From Chitinophagaceae bacterium (GTDB lineage Bacteria; Bacteroidota; Bacteroidia; Chitinophagales; Chitinophagaceae), in the NCBI GenBank assembly GCA_023957755.1, contig JAMLGT010000016.1:1-32000 (forward strand): a stretch of DNA of 32,000 nucleotides, read 5' to 3'. The notes below the pieces were generated by a model. The model was not told the DNA's origin. It saw nothing but the letters and a program-made list of their open reading frames with translations, and did not search any database. Shown here piece after piece: positions 3,144 to 32,000 of this stretch. Positions within the stretch are counted from its first letter, which is position 1; each line of letters opens with the position of its first letter. A program made the position numbers and the translations under genes.

Positions 3144-3250
3144 AGTTTTGATTGTTTGAAGGTAAATAATAATTGAGCGTAAGGTTTTTGTTTATCATTT
3201 TCAAACGACCCCGGAAATGTTCGCTGCATTTCCGGTTTTGTTTTTATACT

Positions 3251-4501: not shown

Positions 4502-4568
4502 AGCTTGTATAATTAAATAGTGTAGGCATGATGAAATTTTACCCCATCAACCCCGAAAAATTTTCAGA

Positions 4569-5804: not shown

Positions 5805-6617
5805 TCACTTCTCCATCTGCTCAATAACCGACTGGGTAACACCTGTGGTGGAGAATCCGCCATCGTGAAACAGATTTTGCATAGTAACATATTTCGTGAG
5901 GTCGCTAAATAAGCTTGCTACATAATTTGCGCATGCTTCTGCATCTGCATTGCCGAGCGGGCTCATCTTCTCTGCATAAGAAATAAAACCATCAAAGCCC
6001 TTCACTCCACTGCCGGCAGTAGTGCGGGTAGGCGATTGGGAAATGGTGTTTACACGTACTTTCTTCTTCAGTGCATAATGATACCCAAAACTACGCGTGA
6101 TGCTCTCCAATAACGCTTTGGCATCCGCCATCTCACTATAATCGGGGAATACCCTCTGTGCTGCAATGTAGGTAAGCGCCACTACACTCCCCCATTCGTT
6201 CAGCGCATCATTCTTCCAGCAGGTGGCTAACAAACGATGCAGGCTGGTGGCAGAGATATCGAGTGTCTTCTGATTGAAACCGTAATCTATTTCTGTATAT
6301 GACTTGCCTTTGCGCATATTCAGACTCATGCCCACGCTATGAAGTACGAAGTCGAAACTTCCTCCAAAATGTTCCATTGATTTCGCAATAAGATTTTGCA
6401 TATCCTCATTGCTGGTCACATCGCACGGGATTACAGGCGCACTTATCTTCTCAGCGAGCTTGTTTATCTCTCCCATCCTCATTGCCACAGGCGCATTTGT
6501 CAATACTATTTGAGCACCTTCTTCATGGCAGCGTAATGCAGTAATCCAGGCGATGGATCTCTCGTCTAATGCTCCGAAAATAATTCCCTTTTTTCCTTTC
6601 AATAAGTTGTAACTCAT
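5805..6617 (-). CDS. fabI: Enoyl-[acyl-carrier-protein] reductase (NADH), FabI
   Basis: 270-aa SDR-fold protein with a FabI-type N-terminus (LLKGKKGIIFGALDERSIAW), a Tyr...Lys active-site region (LTYIAAQRVFPDYSEMADAKALLES) and ISQSPTRTTAGSGV. ATG start at 6617. Confidence 0.9.
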   Translation of the reverse strand: MSYNLLKGKKGIIFGALDERSIAWITALRCHEEGAQIVLTNAPVAMRMGEINKLAEKISAPVIPCDVTSNEDMQNLIAKSMEHFGGSFDFVLHSVGMSLNMRKGKSYTEIDYGFNQKTLDISATSLHRLLATCWKNDALNEWGSVVALTYIAAQRVFPDYSEMADAKALLESITRSFGYHYALKKKVRVNTISQSPTRTTAGSGVKGFDGFISYAEKMSPLGNADAEACANYVASLFSDLTKYVTMQNLFHDGGFSTTGVTQSVIEQMEK

Positions 6618-6669
6618 ACTTGCTGATTTATTATTTGACCGAAAGTAAAATTTTTCTTTGTAATGGCAC

Positions 6670-9278: not shown

Positions 9279-10376
9279 TCAATACAAATATCGTACGGGA
9301 TTGGTCTTACGCTCCGTTTTTAGGACGGCAAAGGTAGGAAAATTCTTTTGTAAATAGGTAGCCAAAAGTTCTACTGTATATTGCTCTGTCTCATAATGCC
9401 CCGCATCAGCCAGGAGTATTTCGCCATCCGCCTCAAAAAACTCGTGATATTTGATATCTGCTGTGATATATACCTGGGCGCCTGCCGCCTTTGCCGATGG
9501 CAAAAGAAAAAACCCTGAACCGCCGCACAATGCGACCCTGCTCACCTTCCTCCCAAGAAAATCAGTATGGCGGATTACCTCGGCATTCAAAAGGTCTTTT
9601 ACCATATATAATAATTCCATTTCATCCATTTCCTCCTCTAAATCACCTACAATGCCACTACCAATTGTGGATACGGTATTATCCAGCGTAGTTATATAAA
9701 AGGCTACTTCTTCATAAGGGTGCGATTCGCGCAATGCGTTTACAAGGCCTATTTCTGCAAATGCCGGAAAAATCATCTCCATCCTCACCTCCTTTTCGTA
9801 ATGCCTTTCACCCTTATTCCCTACGAATGGATTTGCATCCTCAAGCGCTCTGAAGGTACCGGTGCCTTCCAGATTAAAGCTACATTCGTCATAATTACTA
9901 ATAAACCCGCCCCCGGAAGCAAACAGGGCGCTACGCACTTTTTCGGCATGATCTACAGGCACAAAGGTTACCAGTTTCTTCAATCCGTCCCGTTTCTCAT
10001 CCAGCACCCTGGTATTCGTCAGCCCGATTAACCCAGCAAGCATTCCATTGACACCGTGAAGCACATTATCCAGGTTGGTATGTATTGCATAGACAGACAG
10101 ATTTTCTCTGATGGCCTTCATCACAACCCTTTGCACCAGGCCATCACCTGTCAGTCGCTTTAGCCCCTTAAATATTATGGGATGATGGGCCACAATGAGA
10201 TTGCAACCCTTTTGGATAGCCTCGTCTAACACTTCCTCCGTTACATCCAGTGTCACAAGCACACCTGAGCAATCAAGTTGACGGTCACCGACAAGGAATC
10301 CCGAATTATCATAGGGCTCCTGCAACTGCGGAGGGGCCAAACGATTCAGAAAAGCCGTTACTTCAGCGATTTTCAT
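9279..10376 (-). CDS. Nif3-like dinuclear metal centre protein (YbgI/NIF3 family, long form with inserted domain)
   Basis: 365 aa. N-terminal NIF3 pattern (YDNSGFLVGD, LIVAHHPIIFKGLKRL, VYAIHTNLD) and C-terminal half (VALCGGSGFFLL, ITADIKYHEF...AGHYETE), with a roughly 100-aa insert between them. Confidence 0.85.
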   Translation of the reverse strand: MKIAEVTAFLNRLAPPQLQEPYDNSGFLVGDRQLDCSGVLVTLDVTEEVLDEAIQKGCNLIVAHHPIIFKGLKRLTGDGLVQRVVMKAIRENLSVYAIHTNLDNVLHGVNGMLAGLIGLTNTRVLDEKRDGLKKLVTFVPVDHAEKVRSALFASGGGFISNYDECSFNLEGTGTFRALEDANPFVGNKGERHYEKEVRMEMIFPAFAEIGLVNALRESHPYEEVAFYITTLDNTVSTIGSGIVGDLEEEMDEMELLYMVKDLLNAEVIRHTDFLGRKVSRVALCGGSGFFLLPSAKAAGAQVYITADIKYHEFFEADGEILLADAGHYETEQYTVELLATYLQKNFPTFAVLKTERKTNPVRYLY

Positions 10377-10390
10377 ATTGAAGATTTGCC

Positions 10391-10831
10391 TTACTGACCC
10401 ACCATTGTAAGTTGTATATCATCTGAGCCTCCCCAGGGTGCAAATTTCAGGGTGGGTATGTTCTTGGATGTAAACCTCCATGATCTTGCCAGAAATCCAA
10501 ATTCACCGGGTGGCACCGCGAGCGAAATTACCAATTTTCCATAATCATTGTTGCTGCTCCACGACCCTTGATAACTTTCACTTCCTTTGGTTGCAATTAG
10601 CGCTCCGCTATAATAATCGTTTCCCTTCTTAAGTATAAAAGTGTAACCATTGTATTGGGCAGTTATATCATTGCCCCTGTCATTTGCATAAGTAATTACA
10701 TAGGGCCGGTTTAATACCGCACTCTCAAAATACTGCTCCAGAAATGTGGGCGTCTTATCCCCTGACTTCTTACAGGAGGCCAATACCAAAAACAGTAAAA
10801 TTGCCATAAAACATTTCCCTAACTTAGACAT
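10391..10831 (-). CDS. Hypothetical lipoprotein
   Basis: The ORF has a signal peptide and lipobox (MSKLGKCFMAILLFLVLASCKK). I recognise no family. The stop is 14 nt upstream of the NIF3 start on the same strand. The track start at 10840 is a GTG; an ATG lies at 10831. Confidence 0.6.
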   Translation of the reverse strand: MSKLGKCFMAILLFLVLASCKKSGDKTPTFLEQYFESAVLNRPYVITYANDRGNDITAQYNGYTFILKKGNDYYSGALIATKGSESYQGSWSSNNDYGKLVISLAVPPGEFGFLARSWRFTSKNIPTLKFAPWGGSDDIQLTMVGQ

Positions 10832-10885
10832 ACTATTCACTTTTGAGCATCTGTAACGACTGCTTATTCAAAACTACCTTATTTA

Positions 10886-13669
10886 ATGTTCAGACATGCC
10901 GTTTTATTGTTACTCGCGGGCTTTATTACACTGAATTTATCTGCACAATACTTCGGAGGCACTCCCTCATCTATTAGCTGGCGACAAATAAATACAAGCG
11001 ACTTCAGAATTATTTTCCCTGAGGGAACAGACTCCACAGCCAACCATATAGCTTCCGTCATTTATCGAACAAAACCAAAATCTGCCAACACTATTGGCCT
11101 CAGGACGCGTAAGGTGCCCATAATTCTAAGAACTACAGGACTGGAATCCAATGGCTATGTAGGACTGGCCCCTTTCAGAAGTGAGTTTTACCTAACCCCG
11201 CCTGCTACACCTGTCTCTTTGGGCAGTATGCCATGGACCGACCTGCTCGCTATCCATGAATATCGCCATGCCCTGCAATACAGCAATTTCAATGTGGGTG
11301 GAAGCCGGGTGCTGCGTACGCTCTTTGGCGACGAAGGCCAGATCCTTGCAAATGCTGCCTCGGTGCCTGACTGGTTTTTCGAGGGCGATGCAGTTTATAC
11401 CGAGACTCAGTTAGGTGAAAAGGGAAGAGGCCATATCCCCTCCTTCTACAACGGATTCAGGGCCTTATGGCAATCGGGCCGTAACTATAGCTTTATGAAA
11501 CTGCGTAATGGTTCTTATCGCGACTTTGTGCCTGACAAGTATATTCTGGGCTATATGTTTGTAGCTTATGGAAGAGAAAAGTACGGAGACGAATTCTGGA
11601 AGAATGTGACCCATGATGCAGCGTCCTTCAAACCACTTATCTTCCCATTTCAGGCGAATATCAGAAAATATTCAGGCGAGAAATTCAGGGATTTCACCGC
11701 GCACAGCATCCAGCAATTCAAAGACAAATTCAATGACCAGCCTGACGGGCAAATGCAATCCGGTTACTATACCAACGAACAATCACCAGCATTCGATTCT
11801 TCCGGCGCACTTGTTTATTTAAAAAGCAGCGTAAAAGATGTTCCCCAATTTATTATACACAAAGACGGCAAAGAAAAACGTATCCGCGTTGCAGATGTGA
11901 TGAGCGACAGTTATTTCACAATGCGTAATGGCAGGATATTTTACTCCTCTGTAAATCCGGATGTACGTTGGGGTTATCTCTCCTACAACGATATTCAGAT
12001 GCTGGATATAGCCTCAGGCAGGCAAACTGCGCTCACGCATAAAACACGTTACTTCTCTCCTGCTCCGGACGAGGACGGTGCCAGGATTGTAGCCGTGAAT
12101 GCACCCGTAAACCAACAACCATCGCTCCACCTTCTCGATGGCCATTCGGGTAAACTCATAAAGGAATTTAAGCATCCGGAAGTACTGCACTACTATCACC
12201 CATTCATTTACAGCAACCAGATTTTCTGTGCTGTTTCAGATAAAGCCGGCCTGATGTCGATCCTCTCTTTCGACATAACGACAGGAGACTCACGTTTTCT
12301 GTTTCCCTTCCAAAATAGCATCATAAGTTACCCCACCATCAGAAAAGACACACTCTACTTTTCCTCAACTCAGCTTCTCAATGATGTACTCTTTGCTTTT
12401 TCAATGTCAGACGCAAAACTCTTTGAAGTGAATGCTCCCACACCGGTTCTCAGTAAATACAGACCTGCCTTCTCGACAGATAGTATAGCATGGGTAACAC
12501 AAACTGCACAGGGACTACACATACAAAAAACGCCGATTGCTCAATTGACCTACACGCCTGTGCCAATCAAAATCGAACCCTCAGCGACAAACAATCAGAG
12601 CAATGAGCTGCAATCACCAGCTACATTTAAGGATACCATCTTCCAAACAACTAAATACAGAAAGCTCAGCCACCCGTTTAACTTTCACAGTCTGGAACCG
12701 GGTATAGCCGATCCCGAATACAGTCTGCAACTAATTGGCGAAAATATTCTGGGTACGCTTCAGTCGCAATTAGGAATTACCTATAATAATGCTGACAGAT
12801 CTAAATCGGGCTCAATCAGCTTGAATTACGGAGGTCTTTTTCCACTATTTTCTGCTTCTTACGGCTATTCCATTGACCGTTATTTCATCAAAGACACTAA
12901 ACAGATTTTCTTTAATGAATCCGGACCCGAGGTGGGCATCACACTGCCATTGAACTTTAGCAAAGGAAGATCGTTTACAGGGTTGACAGTAGGCACCTAC
13001 ATCAGCCACAAAACACTTGCTGCCCAAAAAGCGTTCAAATCAGAATTCGGCGGACTTACCTACAGTTATTTGTCACATTCAATTTCTCTGTACAACCAAT
13101 CCAGACAGGCATTGGCCCAGGTATTACCCCGTTGGGGACAGTCAGTCACCCTGCGCTACAATCACGGCATTACGGGCGTGTCCGGTCAGCAACTCGTTAC
13201 TGTAGCAAGGTTGCTATTCCCCGGGCTTATCCGCACCCATAGCTTCAACCTCAGAGCCGCATTCTCAACCAAAGACACATTGAGAGAAATCAGCTATGCC
13301 AATAGTTTCCCATTTGCCAGAGGATTCAATGCGGTAAACCTGCACAGGATGTACGGACTTCAATTCAACTATCAACTGCCAATATTTTACCCTGAAACCG
13401 GTATTCCCAATATTGTGTATTGGTTGCGGCTTCGTGCCAACGCCTTTGTTGACCTGACTCGTGTGAACTACTTTGACAATAACAGCCACATGATTCACCG
13501 CAATTTCCGATCGGCAGGAATCGAACTCAATTTCGATACGCGCTGGTGGAACCAGGCTTTTATTTCTTTTGGTCTCCGCTATACCAGGCTAATGGATCCC
13601 GATATCTTTGAAAGTTCTCGGAAAGACAGGTTTGAGGTAATCCTGCCGGTTAATATCTTCAACAGATAA
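10886..13669 (+). CDS. Secreted or outer-membrane protein: peptidase-MA-like HExxH domain + beta-propeller-like middle + Omp85-like C-terminal barrel
   Basis: 927-aa ORF with a signal peptide (MFRHAVLLLLAGFITLNLSAQ). HEYRH lies at nt 11255-11269 and is followed by PDWFFEGDAVYTE, the HExxH...W-x2-EG-x-A-x-Y-x-E layout of MA-clan peptidase-like domains. The middle is repetitive and beta-rich. The C-terminal roughly 330 aa have alternating amphipathic strands and an ARGF motif (nt 13315-13326) resembling the loop-6 (V/I)RG(F/Y) motif of Omp85-family barrels. Confidence 0.7.
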   Translation: MFRHAVLLLLAGFITLNLSAQYFGGTPSSISWRQINTSDFRIIFPEGTDSTANHIASVIYRTKPKSANTIGLRTRKVPIILRTTGLESNGYVGLAPFRSEFYLTPPATPVSLGSMPWTDLLAIHEYRHALQYSNFNVGGSRVLRTLFGDEGQILANAASVPDWFFEGDAVYTETQLGEKGRGHIPSFYNGFRALWQSGRNYSFMKLRNGSYRDFVPDKYILGYMFVAYGREKYGDEFWKNVTHDAASFKPLIFPFQANIRKYSGEKFRDFTAHSIQQFKDKFNDQPDGQMQSGYYTNEQSPAFDSSGALVYLKSSVKDVPQFIIHKDGKEKRIRVADVMSDSYFTMRNGRIFYSSVNPDVRWGYLSYNDIQMLDIASGRQTALTHKTRYFSPAPDEDGARIVAVNAPVNQQPSLHLLDGHSGKLIKEFKHPEVLHYYHPFIYSNQIFCAVSDKAGLMSILSFDITTGDSRFLFPFQNSIISYPTIRKDTLYFSSTQLLNDVLFAFSMSDAKLFEVNAPTPVLSKYRPAFSTDSIAWVTQTAQGLHIQKTPIAQLTYTPVPIKIEPSATNNQSNELQSPATFKDTIFQTTKYRKLSHPFNFHSLEPGIADPEYSLQLIGENILGTLQSQLGITYNNADRSKSGSISLNYGGLFPLFSASYGYSIDRYFIKDTKQIFFNESGPEVGITLPLNFSKGRSFTGLTVGTYISHKTLAAQKAFKSEFGGLTYSYLSHSISLYNQSRQALAQVLPRWGQSVTLRYNHGITGVSGQQLVTVARLLFPGLIRTHSFNLRAAFSTKDTLREISYANSFPFARGFNAVNLHRMYGLQFNYQLPIFYPETGIPNIVYWLRLRANAFVDLTRVNYFDNNSHMIHRNFRSAGIELNFDTRWWNQAFISFGLRYTRLMDPDIFESSRKDRFEVILPVNIFNR

Positions 13670-14497: not shown

Positions 14498-14505
14498 TAC
14501 CTTTG
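14498..14505 (+). promoter_or_regulatory. Candidate Bacteroidota -7 promoter box (TAccTTTG) upstream of grpE
   Basis: Matches the TAnnTTTG consensus and ends 28 nt upstream of the grpE ATG. I see no well-spaced -33 TTTG, so support is weak. Confidence 0.25.
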
Positions 14506-19330: not shown

Positions 19331-19361
19331 AAGCTTCCTTACATTTGTTGGGAAGCTTTTT
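19331..19361 (+). terminator. Rho-independent terminator after folE
   Basis: 8-bp stem (aagcttcc 19331-19338 / ggaagctt 19351-19358) with a 12-nt loop, followed by a T-run to 19361. Confidence 0.55.
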
Positions 19362-19848: not shown

Positions 19849-19900
19849 ACCTGAACTAAGAAATCTTGCCATACCTAAGATTCTTATGTATATTTGAGTT

Positions 19901-20914: not shown

Positions 20915-21946
20915 TTATGGCACAATAACGGTCCTCACTCCTGCATCAAATTTCTCAAGGGCATCAAGCGTGTCATTAATCGCCTGTGCATCGAGCGGAA
21001 TAGTGCGACTGACTATATGAGAGGTATCCAGCATCTTCTTTGAGGCAAACTCTACCAGACGGGGTAATTCCTGCAACAAATGGTCGTTTGAACCTATCAG
21101 TTCCACTTCGTTACCCAGAATCTCACTGTAGGTATGAACAGCCAAATCTTTATTGGAAAGCCCTACTAATACCACCCTTCCCATTGGGCCGGCTGATTGT
21201 AATGCCTGCTTCTGTGTCTCAATAAGGCCAATCATTTCAATAGCCACATCTACCCCTCTGCCACCGGTTTGCTTACGTATTTCTTCCACTACATTTCCTT
21301 CTTTTCCATTCAGCGGCACGGCTCCATATTGGGAGGCAAGCTTTAGCTTCTCCTCATTGATATCAATAGCAAAAACTGTGGTTGCTCCGAATGCTTTTGC
21401 CAACTGAACAGCCGACTGACCAAGCCCTCCCACTCCAAAAACAGCCACCTTATCGCCGGGCTTTATCCGTCCTTTCAGAAGAGAATGAAATGCAGTAGCT
21501 GAGGCGCACATGAGCGTCGCTCCTTGTTCAAATGGAATCTCATCAGGCAGATGAATGGCGTTTCTCGCCGGTATCGCTATATATTCCGCATAACCTCCGT
21601 TAGTATGATGGCCAATCATTTTACCCTTAAGGCAGAATTGTTCATTGCCTGTAGCGCAGTAGTAGCAATCTCCACAGGTAATCAGATAGTGCAGGCATAC
21701 GCGGTCGCCCGGCTTCACATTATCCACCTCTTTTCCTATTTTCTCAACCACACCAGCCACCTCGTGACCTAATGTAATAGGAGTGAAACTTACGGGAGAA
21801 ATGCCTGCCCTGTAATGTGCATCGGAATGGCAGATACCTGCTGCTTTTACACGTACCAGAATATCACGGTCTCCGATTTCGGGTATCGGAATCTCCTGCA
21901 ATTCAAGAGGCTTATTTACTCCTGTCATTCTTACTGCTTTCATCAT
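20915..21946 (-). CDS. Zinc-dependent alcohol dehydrogenase (MDR family)
   Basis: 343 aa. Catalytic-zinc region (GICHSDAH...GHEVAGVVEKIG), structural-zinc Cys cluster (CGDCYYCATGNEQFC) and Rossmann motif (VFGVGGLGQSAVQLAK). Confidence 0.88.
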   Translation of the reverse strand: MMKAVRMTGVNKPLELQEIPIPEIGDRDILVRVKAAGICHSDAHYRAGISPVSFTPITLGHEVAGVVEKIGKEVDNVKPGDRVCLHYLITCGDCYYCATGNEQFCLKGKMIGHHTNGGYAEYIAIPARNAIHLPDEIPFEQGATLMCASATAFHSLLKGRIKPGDKVAVFGVGGLGQSAVQLAKAFGATTVFAIDINEEKLKLASQYGAVPLNGKEGNVVEEIRKQTGGRGVDVAIEMIGLIETQKQALQSAGPMGRVVLVGLSNKDLAVHTYSEILGNEVELIGSNDHLLQELPRLVEFASKKMLDTSHIVSRTIPLDAQAINDTLDALEKFDAGVRTVIVP

Positions 21947-22074
21947 TCTTTTCTTTTGGTTCCGCGAAGATACGCCTCAATTCGCAGCACTATTTTCGAA
22001 AAGTGATATTTGGGAAGCGACGACTTTCAGGCTTGTAAGCAACAGCAATTCAAAATGAATCAAAGGAATATTTC

Positions 22075-22103
22075 AAATAAAAAAGGGAGCACGCCGGCTC
22101 CCC
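22075..22103 (-). terminator. Rho-independent terminator ending the SusCD-cyanophycinase operon
   Basis: Stem gggagc (22085-22090) / gctccc (22097-22102) with a 6-nt loop. On the minus strand it is followed by ttttttattt (plus-strand A-rich run 22075-22084). It lies 21 nt downstream of the stop at 22124. Confidence 0.6.
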
Positions 22104-22123
22104 ATGATTGATCTTAAGGTTTA

Positions 22124-23251
22124 TTACTTAATGAAGATATCTCTTGGACTCTTCAAACCGGAAAGGAAGTTTTCTACATTGGTACCATCCAGATTAGCAC
22201 GTTTGATTATGCCTTTATCCCTGTCGGACCAGTAAAATTTATTTTCTGTATAATCCATCGCCATTCCATGAATTCTGGTGCTTGGCGCATCAGCAAACTT
22301 CTCTACTCCGGAACCATCGAGGTTTGCTCTCATCACAGCCTTCGAGTTACGATCATCATAATAAAGCTTGTCGTGAATTTTATCTACAAAGATGCTGTAT
22401 CCATAAGCACCCGAAATTATCTTCACGACTCCGGTACCATTAGCTCCTGCCGCATACAGGTCTTCATTATTCACCTCATAGAAATAAATAATATTATTCT
22501 TACTGTCAAAAGCAATTCCACGCATCATCCCATCAGCAATATGGATAAACTGTCTTTCCAGATTACCCCCATCCAGATCTGCGCGCGAAATATTCCCGTC
22601 ATCATCTGCCCAGTAAATTTTTCCGCCTGCAAGATTAATAGCAATAGAATACGGATCTACTATACCGTTTACTAATTGTTCCATTCCGGTGCCATCCATA
22701 TTCATCCTCCATATTTTGCCATCATCGGCCACCTCGAAATCTGAAAAATAAATTTTCCCGTTAACAGAATCGTATGCTAGTCCCACACCACCTTTACCAG
22801 TTACATCCGCTATCAACTCAGGAGTAGAACCCGGAGCCAGGGATACCTTACGGATTGCGTTCTGGCCTAATTCCACATAATACATATCTTTTATTGTGGG
22901 CGGAGGAGGAGTAGTATCCTTGATGGTCACATCGATCGAATAATTACCCGTACCACCCGGACCCACAGCCCTCAATGCCACAGTGAAAATACCAGGTGCA
23001 TGATACACCTTGGTTGGATTTTTATCTGTGGAAGTGGTGCCGTCTCCAAAATTCCACAAATAGGAGTCGGCGCTCTCTGAAAGGTTATTAAAGTGCATTT
23101 CCTCACCTACATCGTATGCAGTACTATCAAGTGTGAAATAACTCTTCACAGTGTCAGGCAGATCGTCAAAATTGTAGCTTGTCTTCTCACAACCTGCCAT
23201 AAGGAAGAATGCCCCTAATAAAAACGGAATAAATCTTTTTGTTATCAACAT
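22124..23251 (-). CDS. Lipoprotein with PKD domain and six-bladed YWTD (LDL-receptor class B-like) beta-propeller
   Basis: Lipobox FFLMAGCEK. PKD signature (YLWNFGDGTTSTDKNPTKVYHAPGIFTVALRAVGPGG). Six repeats follow of the type KIYWADDDGNISRADLDGGN, KFYWSDRDKGIIKRANLDGTN, KLYYDDRNSKAVMRANLDGSG and KIYFSDF..KIWRMNMDGTG. Confidence 0.8.
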   Translation of the reverse strand: MLITKRFIPFLLGAFFLMAGCEKTSYNFDDLPDTVKSYFTLDSTAYDVGEEMHFNNLSESADSYLWNFGDGTTSTDKNPTKVYHAPGIFTVALRAVGPGGTGNYSIDVTIKDTTPPPPTIKDMYYVELGQNAIRKVSLAPGSTPELIADVTGKGGVGLAYDSVNGKIYFSDFEVADDGKIWRMNMDGTGMEQLVNGIVDPYSIAINLAGGKIYWADDDGNISRADLDGGNLERQFIHIADGMMRGIAFDSKNNIIYFYEVNNEDLYAAGANGTGVVKIISGAYGYSIFVDKIHDKLYYDDRNSKAVMRANLDGSGVEKFADAPSTRIHGMAMDYTENKFYWSDRDKGIIKRANLDGTNVENFLSGLKSPRDIFIK

Positions 23252-23307
23252 CTTCTGTAGTTTTAAAATTTTTAACGAACGAGTCTTTTCTGTTATAAGG
23301 TTTTATT

Positions 23308-24159
23308 TTATTTCAATTTAAATGTATCTCCTGCAGAATAAAGCGCAAGTTTTGCATTCTGAAAGGCAATCTTGTCTCCATTGAACACTTTTACCTTCCC
23401 GGGGTGCGACACCACTACCACCTGGCTCTCACCCACTACACGTACACGCTTACCCTTTACAATCACTGCTGTGCTTTCATCAATCCCTATTACCATCTTA
23501 TCCGGATGATCTCCTAATACACTCAGCAGCCTGTTGTATCTGCTCCTCTTTACAAAATGCTGGTCTATAATCGCCTTGCTCACAAAGCCCATTCCTTCAG
23601 AGGTGATCACATTGCCTTTCTTAATCTCCCTGAAGTTATTGTTATCCTTCTTATCGCGCTCCTCACCTGTGATCATAATCTGAGACATCACCGCTGCTCC
23701 TGCACTGGTTCCGGCCACAGTAGCCCCCTCGTTGAAAGCCGTGTGCATTGCTTCGTACAAAGGAGTAGCCCGTACCACGTCCATAAATCTGTTTTGGTCA
23801 CCCCCTACAATATAAATCAGCCGGGCATTTGCTACAGAGTCGATCCAGGCTTTCTTATCCTTTGCTTCCTGCTGTGTAAAATGAAATTTCGTCACCACAT
23901 TCTTACAAAGTGTGCCCAGTTGTTTACTTATCGCCTCATAAGATTCGTCAGGTACCCCACTTGCCATTGTCAATACTACTATATAGTCGTCCCCTGCAAG
24001 TGAAGCTGTATTCAAAAGTTCCTGCATCAATGCCGTTGACCTTTCACCTCCGCCGATGATAAACAGATTTCCACTTCCCTTCTGTGCACCGGCTATTGCC
24101 GTGACCAGTAGCAAGCTGATTGTGAATACAATATTTACGATTCTTCTGTACCTCATCAT
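23308..24159 (-). CDS. Secreted cyanophycinase (peptidase S51, CphB/CphE type)
   Basis: Signal peptide MMRYRRIVNIVFTISLLLVTAIAGAQ. All the blocks I remember from CphB are present: FIIGGGE, YIVGGDQNRF, AGTSAGAAVM (nucleophile Ser), IDQHFVKRSRYNRLL (His) and GIDESTAV (Glu). The start overlaps the upstream stop by 4 nt. Confidence 0.88.
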   Translation of the reverse strand: MMRYRRIVNIVFTISLLLVTAIAGAQKGSGNLFIIGGGERSTALMQELLNTASLAGDDYIVVLTMASGVPDESYEAISKQLGTLCKNVVTKFHFTQQEAKDKKAWIDSVANARLIYIVGGDQNRFMDVVRATPLYEAMHTAFNEGATVAGTSAGAAVMSQIMITGEERDKKDNNNFREIKKGNVITSEGMGFVSKAIIDQHFVKRSRYNRLLSVLGDHPDKMVIGIDESTAVIVKGKRVRVVGESQVVVVSHPGKVKVFNGDKIAFQNAKLALYSAGDTFKLK

Positions 24160-25214
24160 TCCTTATATATAAATATCGATACTTTGCCATTCTCATCTAT
24201 CATACCTCTGTACATCCCTGGCGTATTAAACTCCATCGCCACATTTCCAGCCTTATCCAAAGCAATAATACCTCCATTGCCTCCCATCTTCCCTATTTCA
24301 TCAATTACCTGCCTTGCAGCATCATCTACAGAAAGTCCTTTCAATTCCATTAATGAAGACAAGCGATTGGCTGCCACCTCCCTGATATAAAACTCTCCCC
24401 ACCCGGTACTCGAAATACCCGCAGTAGCGTTATTACAATAGGTCCCTGCGCCAATGATGGGAGCATCTCCCACTCTTCCATACTTTTTGTTGGTCATCCC
24501 ACCTGTAGAAGTACCTGCTGCCAGATTTCCACTCTTGTCCAGAGCTACTGCCCCCACAGTCCCAAACTTCTTATCCTTGCCTGACACTCCTGAAATACTG
24601 CTACTCTTTGGATCGATGTCATTAAAGGCAGCATGTCCGGTTTCCTCCTGACTGATCATCCGCTGTAGCTGATCCCAGCGTTCCTGCGTGAAGAAGTATG
24701 AGGGAGGTACCGTATCGCACCCATTTGCCGCTGCAAATATCTCCGCTCCCCTTCCTACCATCATTACATGTTCCGACTTGTCCATCACAGCCCTTGCTGC
24801 ATTGATCGGATTCTTCAGATTGGTTACGCCGGCTACAGCCCCTGCTTTCAATGTAGCGCCATCCATGATAGAGGCATCCAGCTCATTCTTACCATCATGG
24901 GTAAAAACGGCTCCCTTCCCTGCATTGAAAAGTGGAGAGTTTTCCATTACATTGATCGCCGACTGCACTGCATCTAATGAAGCGCGTCCCTCTTTAATCT
25001 GATCGTATCCTGCCTGCAATGCCTCCGTCAGTGCTTCTTTATAGGCCTGTTCCTTTTCCGGAGTCATCGACTCTTTATTAATAGTGCCTGCACCACCGTG
25101 AATCACCATTACATACTTTGTGTGCTGGCCTTCTGATACAGGCACGTCACATGAGGCCAGTAAGAATCCGGACATCAGGAAACAACACAATATAATTACA
25201 ACCCTGTTCATCAT
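24156..25214 (-). CDS. Isoaspartyl peptidase / L-asparaginase (plant-type, Ntn hydrolase), lipoprotein
   Basis: Lipobox FLLASCD. HGGAGT lies near the N-terminus. The autoprocessing and nucleophile block is KKFGTVGAVALDKSGNLAAGTSTGGMTNKKYGRVGDAPIIGAGTY. Confidence 0.9.
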   Translation of the reverse strand: MMNRVVIILCCFLMSGFLLASCDVPVSEGQHTKYVMVIHGGAGTINKESMTPEKEQAYKEALTEALQAGYDQIKEGRASLDAVQSAINVMENSPLFNAGKGAVFTHDGKNELDASIMDGATLKAGAVAGVTNLKNPINAARAVMDKSEHVMMVGRGAEIFAAANGCDTVPPSYFFTQERWDQLQRMISQEETGHAAFNDIDPKSSSISGVSGKDKKFGTVGAVALDKSGNLAAGTSTGGMTNKKYGRVGDAPIIGAGTYCNNATAGISSTGWGEFYIREVAANRLSSLMELKGLSVDDAARQVIDEIGKMGGNGGIIALDKAGNVAMEFNTPGMYRGMIDENGKVSIFIYKE

Positions 25215-25223
25215 TTATTTATA

Positions 25224-26282
25224 CTAATCATCTACCATACTTAATCTGCCTGTATTTACCGACCACCATGATCTGGTAAGCCCATTTGTACTCTCAGGCT
25301 CAAAAGTGACCATGTTGAACTTGTTACCTGCTGCTTTAGCTGACACGGCCGAAACCCTAAGTGCCTGGCCGCTCCAGTTCCAGGTAACCGGCGTATTGGA
25401 CGTAAATGTTTCAGGCGCTTTATCAGAAAATGCTTTGATGAAAAATGCTTTATTTGACCCAACCACTTCAGCCATGCCCGCATCGTCAATACATACTGCT
25501 GTCGCTTCATCTACAGCAACACCCGAAGGGGTTTTCCCCCAGTCTTTCATAATTCTGCCCATAAACACTACAAGGCGGCCCTGTCTGTCACGCTGAGTGA
25601 AATGCTGATCCGTTATCACACTCTGCAAAAAAGGTGCACGTAGAAAATCACCGTTATACAACAGGATATCACTCCCATAGGGATTTGTCAGGGCAGCAGA
25701 AGAAACTACACTCCCCTTCTCGCCACTGAAATAAAAATTGCCTAATATAGCCGCTCCTGCACTGGTGCCTCCAACCGGCACCTTCTTCACCGTCAGCAGA
25801 TAATTAATAGCGTCCATCACCTTAGTACCCTTCCAATAACCGGTATAGTCAGACTGGTCGCCACCTGCAATGAATAATAGCTCCGCATTCCTGATAATTC
25901 GGGCCACACCATCATCCTCGGCCAATTTGCGTGAATCGATCTTCAGAGTCTCAACTGAATTCAGTGAGCCCAGGCGATTTACATAGGGATTATAGGCGTC
26001 CGTTCCCGAAGCGCGGATAATCACTGCATCACCACCGCCACTCCTGGCTATCATCCAGCGAAATGCCGCATCCACATCAGCGCCCCCTCCCATAATCACC
26101 ACTCCTCCACTGGTGGTCTTTGTGACATCGGCAGTATCCCCTACAATTCCGATAGAGGCGGGACGTGTTGTCGTTGGATTTACCGGATCCGGATTCCGCG
26201 GTGTAAAAGGATTAAAATCATCATCCTTCTTACATCCCGCAAGAAAAAACACAAAAAGAAACAGTGACAATATATACTTCAT
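25224..26282 (-). CDS. Cyanophycinase-like S51 peptidase lipoprotein with C-terminal extension
   Basis: Lipobox with acidic +4 to +6 residues (MKYILSLFLFVFFLAGCKKDDDF). S51 cyanophycinase blocks: VIMGGGAD, FIAGGDQSDY, GGTSAGAAIL, TDQHFTQRDRQGRLV and AVDEATAV. An extra ~90 aa follow at the C-terminus. The track start at 26297 is also an ATG. Confidence 0.8.
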   Translation of the reverse strand: MKYILSLFLFVFFLAGCKKDDDFNPFTPRNPDPVNPTTTRPASIGIVGDTADVTKTTSGGVVIMGGGADVDAAFRWMIARSGGGDAVIIRASGTDAYNPYVNRLGSLNSVETLKIDSRKLAEDDGVARIIRNAELLFIAGGDQSDYTGYWKGTKVMDAINYLLTVKKVPVGGTSAGAAILGNFYFSGEKGSVVSSAALTNPYGSDILLYNGDFLRAPFLQSVITDQHFTQRDRQGRLVVFMGRIMKDWGKTPSGVAVDEATAVCIDDAGMAEVVGSNKAFFIKAFSDKAPETFTSNTPVTWNWSGQALRVSAVSAKAAGNKFNMVTFEPESTNGLTRSWWSVNTGRLSMVDD

Positions 26283-26312
26283 TACGCTACAATTCATTAT
26301 TTGCTATCAGTT

Positions 26313-27725
26313 CTAATATTTAGGATTCTGCACCATCGCTTTGTTTACCGACATCTCATCAGAAGGTATTGGGAAACAGTATTGTGCTGCCGTAGGTTCC
26401 AGCTTCACTGCTCCCGAGGCATTGATAGCATCCTGAGGCAGACGCTCTACAGGAAGGTTCCTGCGTTTCAGATCGAAGAAACGATGTCCTTCAAAAGCCA
26501 ATTCTTTAAACCTTTCATTGTAGATCGCATCCAGCAGGCTCTGTTTATCAGGGAAGCTGGCATCTACATACCCTATTATTCTGGCTCTCCTCAATTCGTT
26601 CAGGTCTTTCGCTGCTGCAGTAATCCCGGCAGGGCTGTTATCCTTTTCCAACAAAGCCTCTGCCCTGATGAGATACATCTCTCCGGTTCTGAAAAGCTTG
26701 ATATCCGTAAGACCTAAATTCAGCGGATCACCTCCATTATACTTCTTAATCAGGTAAGCAGATTTCTTACCTCCTGAGTTATCCTGACGCAACTGGTCAT
26801 ACGTAATATAGCTGCTGAACCGCACATCATTATCTCTGTCAAATGTGTTGAGCAATTTGAAGGCGGGTGCATACAATACGATTTCTCCTGTCTCACGGAA
26901 GAAGGCTGACCCTATTTTAGAATCGCCAGGTACCCGTGCCAGTTCCCACACAACTTCAGCATTGCTCTGGTCTATCCAGATTTTCCCGAAATCATTTCTT
27001 GCTGCAAGAGGCTCCTGGTTAATCACTTCTGTAGCATAAGCGATGGCCTTATCCCAATCCTTTGCATACAATGCCACCCTGGCCTGGATAGCTGACACAG
27101 CAGCTCTGGTGATCCGTGTTTTAACATTAAAACTTGCAGGGATCAGATCTTTTGCTGCCTGCAGGTCTGCATTAATATCCTCAAAATTCGATTGCACGGT
27201 AGGCCTTGCCGGGTAGCCCAGCTCATGCTTCTTCATATAAGGTACACCCATACCGTCTCCGTCATACTTAGAAGCATAAGCCTTTAACAGTTCGAAATGG
27301 CTAAATGCCCTGAGTGCCAGCATCTCACCCTGATACTGATCCAGTGTGCTTTGGGTAGCACCTGTAACAGGGATATTCGGCACTGCTTCCAGCACCCTGT
27401 TGGCACGGTCAATCACCAGATAATACTCATTCCAGGCACTCGTAACAGAACCGTAGGAGGAGTTATACATCCAACGGTGGGTAACGGTGTTGGATACCGT
27501 ATTCTCAGTAGGAAGCATTACCTCGTCTGATACGATAGCCCCTGTCTCTATAAGCGTATAATCGAGTGGTGCATAGGCGCCTAACGCGCCCATATTGAGG
27601 TCGTTCAGATTACGAAATGCCTTTGTAGGATCGATGGAATCTGTCGGAGGCATATCTAACTTATCGCAGGACACCAGTACAGCTCCTGAAAGAGATAAGA
27701 AAAAGAATAATTTTTTTATGTTCAT
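26313..27725 (-). CDS. SusD/RagB-family outer-membrane lipoprotein
   Basis: The ATG at 27725 gives MNIKKLFFFLSLSGAVLVSCDKLD (lipobox). The protein is TPR-like and helical, with RAEALL, ERFKELAFEGHRFFDLKRR and a C-terminal QNPKY. It starts 10 nt after the SusC stop. Confidence 0.85.
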   Translation of the reverse strand: MNIKKLFFFLSLSGAVLVSCDKLDMPPTDSIDPTKAFRNLNDLNMGALGAYAPLDYTLIETGAIVSDEVMLPTENTVSNTVTHRWMYNSSYGSVTSAWNEYYLVIDRANRVLEAVPNIPVTGATQSTLDQYQGEMLALRAFSHFELLKAYASKYDGDGMGVPYMKKHELGYPARPTVQSNFEDINADLQAAKDLIPASFNVKTRITRAAVSAIQARVALYAKDWDKAIAYATEVINQEPLAARNDFGKIWIDQSNAEVVWELARVPGDSKIGSAFFRETGEIVLYAPAFKLLNTFDRDNDVRFSSYITYDQLRQDNSGGKKSAYLIKKYNGGDPLNLGLTDIKLFRTGEMYLIRAEALLEKDNSPAGITAAAKDLNELRRARIIGYVDASFPDKQSLLDAIYNERFKELAFEGHRFFDLKRRNLPVERLPQDAINASGAVKLEPTAAQYCFPIPSDEMSVNKAMVQNPKY

Positions 27726-27735
27726 GACTGTCAGA

Positions 27736-30700
27736 TTAAAAGTTAACATTGATACCTGCCGTATAAGTACGCGCGTTAGGATATTCAAACCTTCCGTACA
27801 CCCTGTTATTTTCAGGATCCAGTCCTCTCCATGTGGTCCAGGTCAGCAGATTCTCTCCCTGCGCAAAGAGGTCGATAGACTTTACGAAATTCAGTTTCTG
27901 TAACACATTCCCCGGTACACTATATGCCAGCCTCAGGTTTCTCAGACGCATGAAAGATGCATCCTGAATATCTTTTGAGGTATAGTTTCTCGGAATATCG
28001 ATACGCTGAAGCGTGGTATGGTCGCCGGGCTTTTTCCAACGATCATAAAGCATCCTCTTACTCTGATTGCTTGACATGTAAGCCTGGTTTTCAATATAGA
28101 AGTCGATATTGTTCCACCGCTTAATATCAGATACAAAGGTGAAGAGTGCATCCAATGTGATATTTCTCCATTTTACGTTAGTGGTGAAGCCACCGGTAAT
28201 CTTCGGGTAGAAGCTGCCAAAATCGTGTACAGCCTGTTGTTCTTCGTTATACACATTGGTAATGCTTCCATCACGGTTATAGTACAAGGCATCACCTGTT
28301 TCAGGATCTACCCCGGCCCATTTAGGAGCAAGGTAGGTGCCATACGGGAAACCCACTTTAATAATCCTTGTATCACCGTCAGGCAATTCATCAGTCACAT
28401 CTGTTACGTGCAGTATTGTGTTCTTGTTGAAAGCACCATTAAACCCAATGCTCCAGGTGAAATTATTCGTCTGAATCACATCTCCGGTTAATCCCAGTTC
28501 AACCCCTCTGTTCCTCATCTTACCTGTACTGAGTGGCGCTGACGTTGCACCAGAAGTAGCCGACAATGGCTGATCGATAAACATGTTTCTGGTGATTCTG
28601 TCATAGAAGTCAAAAATAATCTTTAACCTTTGCGACTTGAACAATGCCAGATCGAACCCGGTATTGAACTCATCTACATATTCCCAGTCAAAATCCGGAT
28701 TGCCAATTGCTGAAGGTCTGATTGCCGCTTGTCCGCCATAGGTAGTACTCACTGAATAGGTGGACAAATACAGGAAGTCTCCACCGAACGGACTTGCCGT
28801 CTGGCCGTAGCTGGCTCTCAGCCTTAATGCTGAAATGAAATCGCTTGACGCAAGGAAGTTTTCCTTCTTCGCATCCCAGTTAGCTCCGAAAGAATAGAAG
28901 CCATGCCAACGATTATTAGGCGATACCGAAGAGGCGCCATCATATCTGTAGCTTGCCGTCAGTGTGTATTTTTCATTATAGGTATATTTACCCACCCCCA
29001 TATACGACATCAGGGTGCTGAACGTGCGCCCGCCTCCAAGGCTTGGCAAAAAGGTAGTGCTGACCGTAATGCCGGCAGGGGTTCCCATCAACCTGTCATC
29101 AATTCCATAACCGGTATAGTTAAACGACCTGTAATGATTATGTAAATACTCAAAGAATCCGGATATCTCAAAATCATGTTTGTCGATTTTATTATCGTAA
29201 GTAATCCCTGAAGTGGACACAATATTAAAATTGCGCCTTTGCGCCTCTCCAAAGGAACCGCGCTGGCCAAATGCCTTGCTTCCGATATAGGAATTTGGAT
29301 TTATGAAGTTCTGGTCGGTCGAACTTCTAAGGTCAATCCCCGCCCTGGTAGTTATTTTAAGGCCCGGTAGAATTTCATATCCCAGATTCGCCCCTATAAT
29401 TGACTTTACCTGTTCAGTCTTGGTAGAAGTGCCATAAAGCACATCTATACCGCGACTACCTTCACGTGTATCCAGAAAGGTTATTGCATCATCCGTAGGA
29501 TGGAATACTCCATCCGGTGTGTAAGGATACTCAAACGGAAGTGCATAATATACAGAAGCCATCGGCGTACCTACAGAAGTACCGCCTTCGTTATAGGTAA
29601 ACCTCGAGTTGGAGTAACCAATGGAGATATTTACTCCGGCAGTGAACTTATTGAATTTCATGTTCACATTACTCCGTAATGTATAGCGCTCTAATCCTGT
29701 TCTTCTTACAATGCCATCCTCCTTCCAATAACCCAGTGCGTTATACGCCTGAATATTCTCATTACCACCACTCAGGCTCACTTGCTGCTCCATGAAGTGG
29801 CCGTCTCTGAAAAACATATCCCTCCAATCTGTATTAATTTGCCTCAGGCTATCCAGGATAAAGTCGGCCCGTTTCTGCCAATCCACCGTATGATTTGCAT
29901 AATCCGGATTCTTTTTAGAATAAGTCCAGCCGGGTCCTATATTCTGGCCTGTCTCCAACCCTACTTCTTCTTCAAATCTGAGATGCTCTTTGGTATCCAT
30001 CATTTCAAAGCGCGGGCTGGTAAGGGTAGAAAACCCATACTGGGAATTATAACCTACATTCAATTTTCCTTTCCTGCCTTTCTTGGTTGTGATTACTATG
30101 ACTCCGTTTGACCCTCTGGAACCGTATAATGCCTTTGCAGAAGCATCTTTCAGGATGGTCATCGACTCAATGTCCTGAGGGTTGATTGTCTGGAAATAAT
30201 TTCCCTCGATCGGAATTCCGTCCATTACATATAGCGGAGTAGTACTACCGCTGATGCTTCCCACTCCTCTGATTACCACAGCGGCACTTTGTCCGGGCTG
30301 GCCCGAGCTTGAGGAAACACTCATCCCCGGCACGCGGCCTTGTAATATCTGATCCACTGTGCTCATAGGCACCTGATTGATCTCTTTACTTGTGACAAAA
30401 GTGGTGGCACTCGGACTTTCTTTTCTGGAGTATCCGGTGTAACCTGTAATTGTAACCGTCTCCAACTGATTTACCTTCGACTGCACCATCGCCACCACAT
30501 GGTCTGTGGCACCCACTTTCACTGTAGTAGTCTGGTAAGAAACGTGGGATACAATTAACTCATCACCTTCCTTTGCATTAATGGTAAATGAGCCATCATC
30601 TTTTGTAGAAACGGCTGTATTGCTTCCTTTGACGGTAACTGTGGCTCCTGCTACAGGCCTTCCTGTTTCATCTATTACCTGGCCCGTAATTTCTTTAAAG

Positions 30701-30879
30701 ATATCGGCTTTGGTCTCCTTATGGGTAGGAGTACCCGAAAAATGGATGCCCGGTGCAGATGTGGCTCCTGCCTGAAGACACGTGCCTGCAATTAATAAGG
30801 CCGAAAATCCTAAACTTCTCAGATTTCTCCTGAGAAGCAAGGCCTGCGTGTGTGCTTTTACTGATACAATTTGTACCAT
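27736..30879 (-). CDS. SusC/RagA-family TonB-dependent transporter (no STN domain)
   Basis: The ATG at 30879 gives [39 protein letters not shown]. A carboxypeptidase-regulatory-like domain follows ([37 protein letters not shown]), then a plug ([49 protein letters not shown]). The barrel ends in [12 protein letters not shown]. The track's TTG at 30948 overlaps the candidate promoter box. Confidence 0.9.
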   Translation of the reverse strand: [1047 protein letters not shown]

Positions 30880-30946
30880 ATCAATTAGTATTTGTTTTGA
30901 AGAATTATTTAGATTGACGTTGCTTTTCGGTTTTTCAGAACCAGAC

Positions 30947-30954
30947 AAACATAG
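30947..30954 (-). promoter_or_regulatory. Candidate -7 promoter box (TAtgTTTG on the minus strand) for the SusC operon
   Basis: Plus-strand caaacata at 30947-30954 reverse-complements to TATGTTTG, which matches the Bacteroidota TAnnTTTG consensus. It lies about 68 nt upstream of ATG 30879. I see no clear -33 element. Confidence 0.25.
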
Positions 30955-31323
30955 GGTGTATTTTTCATATTGGGGATACGAATCATTATCGGCTTCTCTT
31001 TCCTGTTAATACTCTAAAAAAAAACTGGTTACTCGGGTAAAGGTAGCTTTTTTTACAATTCCATGACAATTCCGAATTGCCCTTGAAGACCCAATATTAA
31101 ACGAGTAAAACGTCCTGAATTGGCCTTGCACCGGGTAGTGAAATCTGTTACTATACCAGTACTACCCCCTACTTCCAGACCGACCAGCTAGCTTACTCAA
31201 AATCAGCATTTTTTTTGCCCTCTTTGAAGGTTTATCCTCTCTTGGCCAAAGTTTCAATTTTAGAAAGCATCCTCAGAGAATATGTTTTATTTTGCCTCCC
31301 TTTGGTTTATAACCATTTCGCTA

Positions 31324-32000
31324 ATGGACGCCCCGAAAAATAACTTCTATCCACAAAATCCTGTACCCTCAGGACTACCTGCGTCTATTACGCCTGTACC
31401 TACAGCAATTCCGGGGTTTATTGGCTATACCGAGCGAAGAGGTACGCCAGATAATCCAATCCCATCAAAAAGAATAAATGGTTTTGAAATAGCGGAGCCG
31501 ATAAGAATTCATTCTCCGGAGGAATACGTAAAAATTTTTGGAAGGAGTCCGGCAGCGACAATCCATGTTTCTATCTCAGAAAGCCTTAATCCCACAACCA
31601 AACGTGTGGCTGAAAAATCTATCCATATCGATTGTGATATTCCACCGCTCCATAAAATGTATTATCATCTGCAACTCTACTTTGCCAATGGTGGCGGACC
31701 GTGTTATATCATAAGCGCCGGAACCCTATCAGAAAAAATTATTGAGGCAGATGCACTGATTGCGGGTATAGAGATGGCTGCATCCTGCCAGGAGATTACC
31801 TTACTCACATGTCCGCAAACCGAACAACTGGAGGAAAAAGATGCAACCTCTATTTACCATGCCATGTTACAGCAGGCCGGACAGCTCAAAGACAGGTTCG
31901 CTATTTTAGACTGTTTCGATAATAACCAGGCATTTCGGATGCGAGAAGTTGTCGGGAAAGACTTTCTGCAATTCGGGGCAGTATATCACCCTTATCTGAA
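31324..32000 (+). CDS. Contractile tail sheath protein (phage-tail-like / extracellular contractile injection system), 5' part only
   Basis: Absent from the track because it runs off the edge. My translation is MDAPKNNFYPQNPVPSGLPASITPVPTAIPGFIGYTERRG...HKMYYHLQLYFANGGGPCYIISAG...ITLLTCPQ...YHAMLQQAGQLKDRFAILDC...GAVYHPYL. The AIPxFIGYTE, FxNGGGPCYI and DRFAILD blocks are hallmark N-terminal motifs of tail-sheath family proteins. An in-frame ATG at 31282 is an alternative start. Confidence 0.8.
   Translation, partial: MDAPKNNFYPQNPVPSGLPASITPVPTAIPGFIGYTERRGTPDNPIPSKRINGFEIAEPIRIHSPEEYVKIFGRSPAATIHVSISESLNPTTKRVAEKSIHIDCDIPPLHKMYYHLQLYFANGGGPCYIISAGTLSEKIIEADALIAGIEMAASCQEITLLTCPQTEQLEEKDATSIYHAMLQQAGQLKDRFAILDCFDNNQAFRMREVVGKDFLQFGAVYHPYL

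Follow-up and report, generated by a model that had tools for sequence, protein, structure and literature searches.

A predicted SusCD-linked cyanophycin utilization locus in a Chitinophagaceae genome

How might a member of the Bacteroidota recover the nitrogen stored in another cell's cyanophycin? This polymer of aspartate (Asp) and arginine (Arg) serves cyanobacteria, and many other bacteria besides, as a major store of nitrogen, and its return to the food web after lysis is experimentally poorly documented. The question is raised by a six-gene locus in a 32,000-nucleotide stretch of DNA (the window: positions 1 to 32,000 of contig JAMLGT010000016.1, assembly GCA_023957755.1) from a Chitinophagaceae bacterium, a soil or freshwater-type member of the Bacteroidota. 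An earlier interpretation, made from the letters alone and without database searches (the sequence-only reading), had proposed that a SusCD-type machine here captures exogenous cyanophycin. The two kinds of computational check that it had called for, enzyme matches and synteny, both support this proposal in silico, with substrate and transport still predicted. The locus is probably a compact cyanophycin utilization locus (CUL), organized as one operon along the lines of a polysaccharide utilization locus (PUL), whose products would bind, trim, import and digest the polymer.

Gene order and boundaries

The six genes occupy positions 22124-30879 of the minus strand, all in one direction. Translated open reading frames (ORFs) span 22124-30948; gene starts were taken from public gene calls on an identical contig (L003-L005 in our numbering of loci). 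In order, and all on the minus strand, the genes encode a SusC/RagA-type TonB-dependent outer-membrane transporter (27736..30879; 1047 amino acids (aa), with a signal peptide, CarboxypepD_reg and Plug); a SusD/RagB-family lipoprotein (26313..27725; 470 aa, lipobox ...LVSC); S51L, an S51-family lipoprotein (25224..26282; 352 aa, or 357 aa from an upstream ATG, with lipobox LAGC and then KKDDD); an IaaA-type isoaspartyl (beta-aspartyl) peptidase of the N-terminal nucleophile (Ntn) hydrolase type (24156..25211; 351 aa, lipobox LASC); S51S, a predicted cyanophycinase (23308..24159; 283 aa, type-I signal peptide, AGA/QK); and a PKD plus YWTD-propeller lipoprotein (22124..23251; 375 aa, lipobox MAGC). 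Successive gaps are 10, 30 (15 with the upstream ATG), 12 (9 with an MM start), -4 and 56 nucleotides, the start of S51S overlapping the stop of IaaA by 4 nucleotides. A TATGTTTG box that may serve as a Bacteroidota -7 promoter element lies 66 nucleotides 5' of the SusC ATG (30946..30953, minus strand). At the other end, 20 nucleotides past the last stop codon, is a terminator-like hairpin (7 base-pair stem with 5 GC pairs) followed by TTTTTATTTG (22084..22103, minus strand).

The sequence-only reading had described this layout, and its particulars are borne out. All of its ORFs are present, in the order given and with the domains as named; its gap figures agree with the gene calls once alternative starts are allowed; and the motifs it quoted occur in the translations (GGGE, GGDQ, AGTSAGAAVM, IDQHF..R.R..RLL and GIDEST; GTVGAVALD...TSTGG...GRVGDAPIIGAGTY). 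The upstream TAnnTTTG-like box (30946-30953) and the downstream hairpin with its T-run (22103-22084) are likewise in place. Every product has a signal peptide or lipobox, as assigned by eye. It had also held that the locus encodes no glycoside hydrolase, lyase or esterase, and Pfam and NCBIfam scans of the six products found no such domain; its likeness to a PUL is hence one of architecture only.

Two cyanophycinase-like proteins

The identity of the two S51 proteins is central to the prediction. S51S scores 163.6 bits against the cyanophycinase equivalog TIGR02069, above the cut-off of 126.6, and just 41 bits against PepE, on which grounds a PepE identity was rejected. It matches the solved cyanophycinases 7UQV (5e-28) and Synechocystis CphB (3EN0; 1e-20), and is 100% identical to an NCBI entry, from a Chitinophagaceae bacterium metagenome-assembled genome, already named 'cyanophycinase'. 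S51L is recognized by PF03575 (31.7 bits; Pfam gathering score 23.9) and by the same cyanophycinase structures (7UQV, 1.6e-13; 3EN0, 1.1e-12); it scores 84.3 bits against TIGR02069, under the equivalog cut-off, and gives a weak PepE match. Sequence identity to CphB and 7UQV is low for both proteins, with alignments of 101 bits (S51S) and 53 bits (S51L).

Both proteins retain the CphB active site. The catalytic triad Ser132/His174/Glu201 (3EN0 numbering) corresponds to S152/H201/E228 in S51S and to S174/H227/E259 in S51L. The substrate pocket (Gln101, Asp172, Gln173, Arg178, Arg180 and Arg183) corresponds to Q122, D199, Q200, R205, R207 and R210 in S51S, and to Q143, D225, Q226, R231, R233 and R236 in S51L. 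Law and colleagues are said to have found, in 2009, that these CphB pocket residues are functionally important. All nine residues are invariant in 18 homologues of S51S and conserved in the 13 canonical S51L orthologues aligned, every one of which also has the lipobox Cys. S51S and S51L thus share with CphB (3EN0/7UQW) and 7UQV the S51 fold, the Ser-His-Glu triad and the residues of the beta-Asp-Arg pocket. They differ in destination: CphB is cytoplasmic, whereas both window proteins carry export signals and in this respect resemble the extracellular CphE of Pseudomonas anguilliseptica. S51L additionally carries a lipoprotein linker of ~45 residues and a C-terminal extension of ~65 residues.

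A predicted exported isoaspartyl peptidase

What would cleave the dipeptides that a cyanophycinase releases? The product of the fourth gene matches PF01112 (Asparaginase_2) at 381.5 bits over profile positions 2-308 of 309. Its best match in the PDB is E. coli EcAIII (2ZAK; 1e-87, 298 bits), in keeping with the isoaspartyl peptidase assignment of the sequence-only reading, and it also matches the IaaA structure 8DQM. The Gly-Thr autoprocessing site is present: in FG-T218-VGAVALD, the threonine aligns with residue 1 of the beta-subunit chains 2ZAL_B, 1JN9_B and 8DQM_B. With E. coli IaaA/EcAIII (2ZAK, 2ZAL) and 8DQM it shares the Ntn-hydrolase fold, this site, and the TSTGG and GRVGD motifs; unlike E. 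coli IaaA, it has a signal peptide and lipobox. Glycosylasparaginases score about 117 bits (about 1e-32), and that identity was rejected. The protein is, on this evidence, a divergent, exported relative of E. coli IaaA. IaaA enzymes hydrolyse beta-Asp-Arg, according to Sharon et al. 2023 (PMC10206079).

Predicted transport and binding proteins

The first two genes form the adjacent susC-like and susD-like pair, 10 nucleotides apart, by which PULs are recognized. SusC scores 710 bits against TIGR04056 and bears the TIGR04057 signature together with Plug and CarboxypepD_reg; it gives no match to PF07660 (STN), as the sequence-only reading had noted. SusD matches PF07980 (1e-28) and PF14322 (1e-21). 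Its sequence conservation is unusual: identity is 60-98% across the top 120 database homologues, and the lipobox Cys is kept in orthologues. SusD matches RagB structures weakly (2e-06), and other SusD-like proteins score much more strongly.

The last gene product is named in public records merely as 'DUF5050' or 'PKD domain-containing', and its Pfam matches are PKD and DUF5050/Ldl_recept_b. In phmmer searches it matches the propellers of LRP2, LRP4 and LRP6 (down to 4e-55, LRP2 best). An AlphaFold2 model (mean pLDDT, the predicted local distance difference test score, of 90.9) places an N-terminal PKD immunoglobulin-like domain before a six-bladed YWTD (LDL-receptor class B) propeller; the top Foldseek matches are the YWTD propellers of ApoER2, LRP4, LRP6, megalin and nidogen, at about 2 A root-mean-square deviation. 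In animals, YWTD propellers bind proteins and peptides. The gene co-occurs with SusCD and S51 genes in two gene orders, and we infer that its product is a surface substrate-binding protein.

Recurrence across genomes

Is the gene set more than an accident of one contig? The synteny search that the sequence-only reading had proposed finds the order SusC-SusD-S51-Asparaginase_2-S51 kept across Chitinophagales and Sphingobacteriales, with differing flanks; between genera the flanks of recurring cassettes are unrelated. The full six-gene order is present in Niabella pedocola (L001), Sphingobacterium pedocola (L002) and S. litopenaei (L007), as well as on two contigs of metagenome or MAG origin, one from a Logan sequencing-run assembly (L087) and one from GCA_002429985.1 (L091). 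In S. cavernae (L071) the order matches up to the contig end, which falls inside S51S. Parapedobacter (L042), Mucilaginibacter (L024) and several Pedobacter species have the same order with no propeller gene detected. Look-ups anchored on SusD (61-63% identity) found S51L, Asparaginase_2 and S51S adjoining in four cases out of four, and look-ups anchored on the propeller protein found a SusCD plus S51 locus in two out of two.

A broader sample came from scanning GTDB, at one genome for each species, with an alignment of S51S as query: the best 80 loci, from Bacteroidota and Balneolaceae, among which the Salinivirga and Niabella genomes are not listed. Counts given here and below use the 63 of these 80 that have at least 7 kb of upstream flank. 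Contiguous, co-directional arrays running from SusC and SusD to S51S occur in 23 of the 63. S51L and/or IaaA lies between in 14 of the arrays, and in 13 of those the SusD is 49-70% identical to that of the window; the exception is Flavobacterium aquariorum (L075), at 28%. Seven other arrays (and one on a cut contig) have two propeller genes between, in Dawidia, Gelidibacter, Cyclobacteriaceae, Fulvivirga and others, and two, from Balneolaceae, consist of SusC, SusD and S51S only.

In loci of the order SusC-SusD-propeller-propeller-S51S, a secreted Peptidase_M20 protein (437 aa; 55-59% identical between loci) replaces IaaA. Its genes are at L086:13370-14683(+), L082:8176-9435, L046:10878-12149, L044:10950-12179(-) and L050:4550-5065(-). 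Known cyanophycin dipeptidases comprise IaaA, IadA and the M14 enzyme CphZ, as listed in two studies (PMC9974463, PMC10206079). From its position in the IaaA slot, the M20 enzyme could represent a fourth, undescribed class.

In Niabella-type genomes an ornithine/arginine decarboxylase gene directly follows the cassette on the opposite strand (L001:12946-14418(-); L087:11204-12667(-)). This could reflect a link to released arginine, or coincidence.

A model for cyanophycin capture and digestion

Export signals suggest how the work might be divided. The lipobox Cys of SusD, S51L and the propeller protein is present in all orthologues compared, and S51S has a plain signal peptide in all. IaaA is less uniform: it carries a lipobox in Chitinophagaceae and Sphingobacterium, whereas its Pedobacter and Mucilaginibacter counterparts bear a plain signal peptide. 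In Flavobacteriales, the lipobox of the S51L-type paralogue is replaced by a C-terminal sorting domain (Por_Secre_tail) of the type IX secretion system (T9SS); examples are found in the regions L046:12255-13190, L082:9520-10449 and L075:2301-3173, one of them also with GEVED. That one paralogue has two independent routes to the surface, by lipobox and by T9SS, argues that S51L works outside the outer membrane; for S51S and IaaA, the plain signal peptides point to action in the periplasm. The KKDDD that follows the S51L Cys resembles what we take to be the acidic surface-export signal of Bacteroidota lipoproteins. Together these features suggest a layout with SusD, S51L and the propeller protein at the surface, and with S51S and IaaA in the periplasm. 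We hold this detailed topology with less confidence than cyanophycin utilization itself, which we regard as probable.

Separately, some of the Flavobacteriales S51L-type paralogues have an altered pocket: DTH or DSH, with NP replacing the first Arg.

A scheme follows for the whole locus. SusD and the propeller lipoprotein would bind cyanophycin from lysed cells, and surface S51L would trim the bound polymer. TonB-energized SusC would then pass soluble beta-Asp-Arg material, in the form of dipeptides and probably of short oligomers too. In the periplasm, S51S would finish cleavage to beta-Asp-Arg, and the exported IaaA-type Ntn hydrolase would split the isopeptide bond to yield free Asp and Arg; these would be taken up by inner-membrane amino-acid carriers encoded elsewhere. 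The main argument for oligomer import is the conserved, presumably periplasmic cyanophycinase, which would have little to act upon were dipeptides alone imported.

The closest competitor to this scheme is a mechanistic variant of it rather than a different substrate. Surface S51L might degrade cyanophycin fully to beta-Asp-Arg, leaving SusCD as a high-affinity dipeptide importer and S51S as a redundant or mop-up enzyme. We consider this unlikely: SusCD and RagAB systems typically import oligomers, and the plain-signal S51S found in every cassette is hard to explain with dipeptides alone in the periplasm. It does draw strength from the full CphB pocket of S51L, and from the characterized cyanophycinases CphB and CphE, which PMC10206079 describes as exo-enzymes releasing beta-Asp-Arg.

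A more distant alternative is general scavenging of aspartyl and isoaspartyl peptides, such as those from aged proteins or Asp-rich peptides, by a RagAB-like importer, PepE-like S51 peptidases and an IaaA acting on isoAsp dipeptides. IaaA enzymes are promiscuous isoaspartyl dipeptidases, according to the same source (PMC10206079); S51L is under the cyanophycinase cut-off and weakly matches PepE; and SusD has its weak resemblance to RagB. Each S51 protein, however, keeps the three Arg and the Gln/Asp/Gln of the CphB pocket, S51S is over the cyanophycinase cut-off and far from PepE, and SusD matches RagB far more weakly than it matches other SusD-like proteins. General scavenging is accordingly improbable. 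A locus for glycopeptides or N-glycan-linked asparagine, in which SusCD imports glycopeptides and the Asparaginase_2 protein is a periplasmic glycosylasparaginase as in Elizabethkingia, can practically be dismissed: the Asparaginase_2 family does include glycosylasparaginases, which are among the PDB matches, and exported members are known in Bacteroidota, but the window protein is far nearer E. coli IaaA/EcAIII, the locus contains no glycoside hydrolase, and the invariant partners are two S51 peptidases.

Several points weigh against cyanophycin utilization by the route proposed here. Exo-enzymes that release dipeptides create no obvious need for a SusCD transporter. The substrate of S51L is less certain than that of S51S, since its TIGR02069 score falls short of the cut-off (84 versus 126.6 bits), and IaaA scores 334.9 bits against NF007589, under an equivalog cut-off of 567; the promiscuity of IaaA enzymes further loosens the assignment. 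The surface exposure of the lipoproteins is read from N-terminal sequence only. Next to the six genes there is neither a regulator, nor an inner-membrane transporter, nor a gene for Arg/Asp catabolism. Full-text literature searches found no experimental study of a SusCD-linked cyanophycin system. Finally, ~40 of the 63 S51S genes have no adjoining SusCD, so S51S alone does not imply a SusCD route.

Where SusCD is missing, the neighbours of S51S are varied: penicillin amidase and AsnC (in Flavobacterium), IadA-like amidohydrolases, M20 and M28 peptidases, and DcuC/AbgT carriers. This variety indicates that cyanophycinase is used in several import architectures. In Flavobacterium (L022, L025, L027, L028, L030, L033, L034, L036, L037, L041 and others, at about 9400-13050), S51S is flanked by AsnC/Lrp and a 734-aa Ntn hydrolase of the penicillin-amidase family; among the 40 loci that lack contiguous SusCD, 11 have a gene of this family right beside S51S. 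The Flavobacterium protein may be an alternative downstream hydrolase in the same pathway. SusCD pairs (~25-30% identical) that lie a few kb from Flavobacterium S51S, as in L030, were considered as variant CULs and rejected: Pfam matches assign them to a sulfatase PUL that is unrelated, and AsnC and an aminotransferase lie between.

The broader proposals that grow out of the bind-trim-import-digest scheme are, taken jointly, tentative, and we put their chance somewhat short of even. They are that the locus encodes a Sus-like machine for a non-glycan, non-ribosomal polymer; that SusC imports (beta-Asp-Arg)n; that the propeller lipoprotein is the first cyanophycin-binding surface protein; that the S51L clade is a distinct class of surface cyanophycinase, attached as a lipoprotein or exported by T9SS, that solubilizes insoluble granules; and that the M20 loci encode the fourth dipeptidase class. 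If so, the propeller lipoprotein would be the peptide-polymer counterpart of surface glycan-binding proteins.

Relation to known systems

Has such a locus been seen before? The sequence-only reading had left this question aside; the answer is yes, as a predicted kind. In the 2017 account by Ben Hania and colleagues, the transport complex of Salinivirga cyanobacteriivorans L21-Spi-D4 is reportedly homologous to those of Bacteroidetes PULs. Their 'cyanophycin utilization locus' (Environ Microbiol 19:1134), as summarized in PMC10206079, joins one or more cyanophycinase genes to genes for a transporter and an isoaspartyl dipeptidase. The two S51 paralogues of Salinivirga differ in structure, and one is directed out of the cell (PMC6243061). 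In the window, correspondingly, the stretch directly downstream of SusCD holds two S51 genes and the cluster includes an isoaspartyl dipeptidase, albeit of the iaaA rather than the iadA type. Like the Salinivirga CUL, which we know from published summaries, the window locus is a Bacteroidetes cluster proposed to let a non-producer scavenge external cyanophycin.

Related clusters have been reported more widely. Sharon et al. 2023 (Sci Rep; PMC10206079) counted 32 RefSeq genomes that have cyanophycinase and IaaA without CphA1, the genes being clustered in 94%; they read cyanophycinase-iaaA clusters without cphA1 as a sign of scavenging of environmental cyanophycin, and stated that the CUL observation holds for iaaA too. 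Earlier, Tang et al. 2012 inferred cyanophycin as the substrate of a TonB-dependent transporter encoded beside a cyanophycinase in Citromicrobium. The locus type is consequently not new, having been proposed in 2017 and its cyanophycinase-iaaA form reported in 2023: the CUL is a known but only predicted kind, and the window locus belongs to it.

Four traits are particular to the window locus. Its dipeptidase is an exported IaaA (an Ntn hydrolase), where the Salinivirga CUL has IadA (an amidohydrolase). Its outward S51 paralogue is a lipoprotein, where that of Salinivirga bears a Por/T9SS domain; the T9SS-tailed S51L of Flavobacteriales parallels Salinivirga and strain Omega in this respect (PMC6243061). 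It also includes a PKD/YWTD-propeller lipoprotein and lacks a regulator, both in contrast to the summary of the Salinivirga CUL. The SusCD pair, S51 lipoprotein, propeller and export signals fall outside the description by Sharon et al. 2023, as given in the passages on these clusters (PMC10206079).

Comparison with Sus-type PULs gives a similar balance. Shared features are the adjacent SusC and SusD, surface lipoproteins in the position of glycan-binding proteins, enzymes predicted at the surface and in the periplasm, and the operon itself. The window locus differs in having no carbohydrate-active enzyme and, within the window, no SusR, hybrid two-component system (HTCS) or extracytoplasmic function (ECF) sigma regulator of its own; its predicted substrate is a non-ribosomal branched polyamide. 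As in RagAB of Porphyromonas gingivalis, the predicted cargo is a peptide and not a glycan, although the likeness of the window SusD to RagB is marginal.

The locus is valuable for the leverage it gives to experiment and for annotation, not as a discovery. A compact, regulator-free cassette in cultivable Sphingobacterium, Pedobacter and Niabella offers a tractable system for studying SusCD with a branched polyamide, and for probing surface binding proteins and the division of labour between surface and periplasmic cyanophycinases. This SusD clade, together with S51L, S51S and IaaA or M20, also supplies a marker set for cyanophycin scavengers in metagenomes.

Regulation

How the cassette is controlled appears to vary by lineage. 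No linked regulator (HTCS, SusR, or ECF sigma/anti-sigma with an STN-bearing SusC) adjoins the locus in the window, where the SusC itself has no STN domain. In the Sphingobacteriales loci L088-L090 (about 2830-7990), genes for an ECF sigma factor, a FecR anti-sigma factor and an STN-bearing SusC lead into the orthologous cassette, and the same module is found ahead of it in Pedobacter (L009 and L014). In L088-L090, S51S is inverted and followed by an alpha/beta hydrolase.

The TATGTTTG box is the sole TAnnTTTG match in the intergenic region 5' of SusC. Other copies lie just 5' of gene starts, for example at 5162-5169, 10869-10876, 14498-14505, 19340-19347 and 19889-19896. The motif is not enriched across the window (24 matches against 29.8 expected), and for this reason we grade the box as a positionally plausible promoter element only. 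A sigma-70 scan is uninformative for Bacteroidota. An Rfam search of 21900-31400 gave no match, and the 450-nucleotide intergenic region upstream of the locus contains short, chance-level repeats only.

Neighbouring genes

The remainder of the window includes housekeeping genes for RecN, NIF3, GrpE, DnaJ, FolE, OsmC, PadR and an alcohol dehydrogenase. No cyanophycin synthetase match was found among ORFs of at least 110 aa in the 32 kb scanned, and two ORFs, of 927 aa (10886-13669, plus strand) and 149 aa (10391-10840, minus strand), have no Pfam match at E <= 1e-4. A second SusC-like transporter, unrelated and STN-bearing, is truncated by the start of the window and accompanied by genes for a FecR anti-sigma factor (3251-4501) and an ECF sigma factor (4569-5138), the whole occupying 3-5138 on the minus strand.

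At the opposite end, divergent from the locus, a lone phage-tail-sheath-like gene (31337-32000, plus strand) runs off the window. The N-terminal 225 aa encoded in the window have no Pfam match, and no other contractile-system genes are visible nearby. In L003 the gene product is 466 aa long and matches PF17482 (Phage_sheath_1C); aspartyl-tRNA synthetase is encoded next to it.

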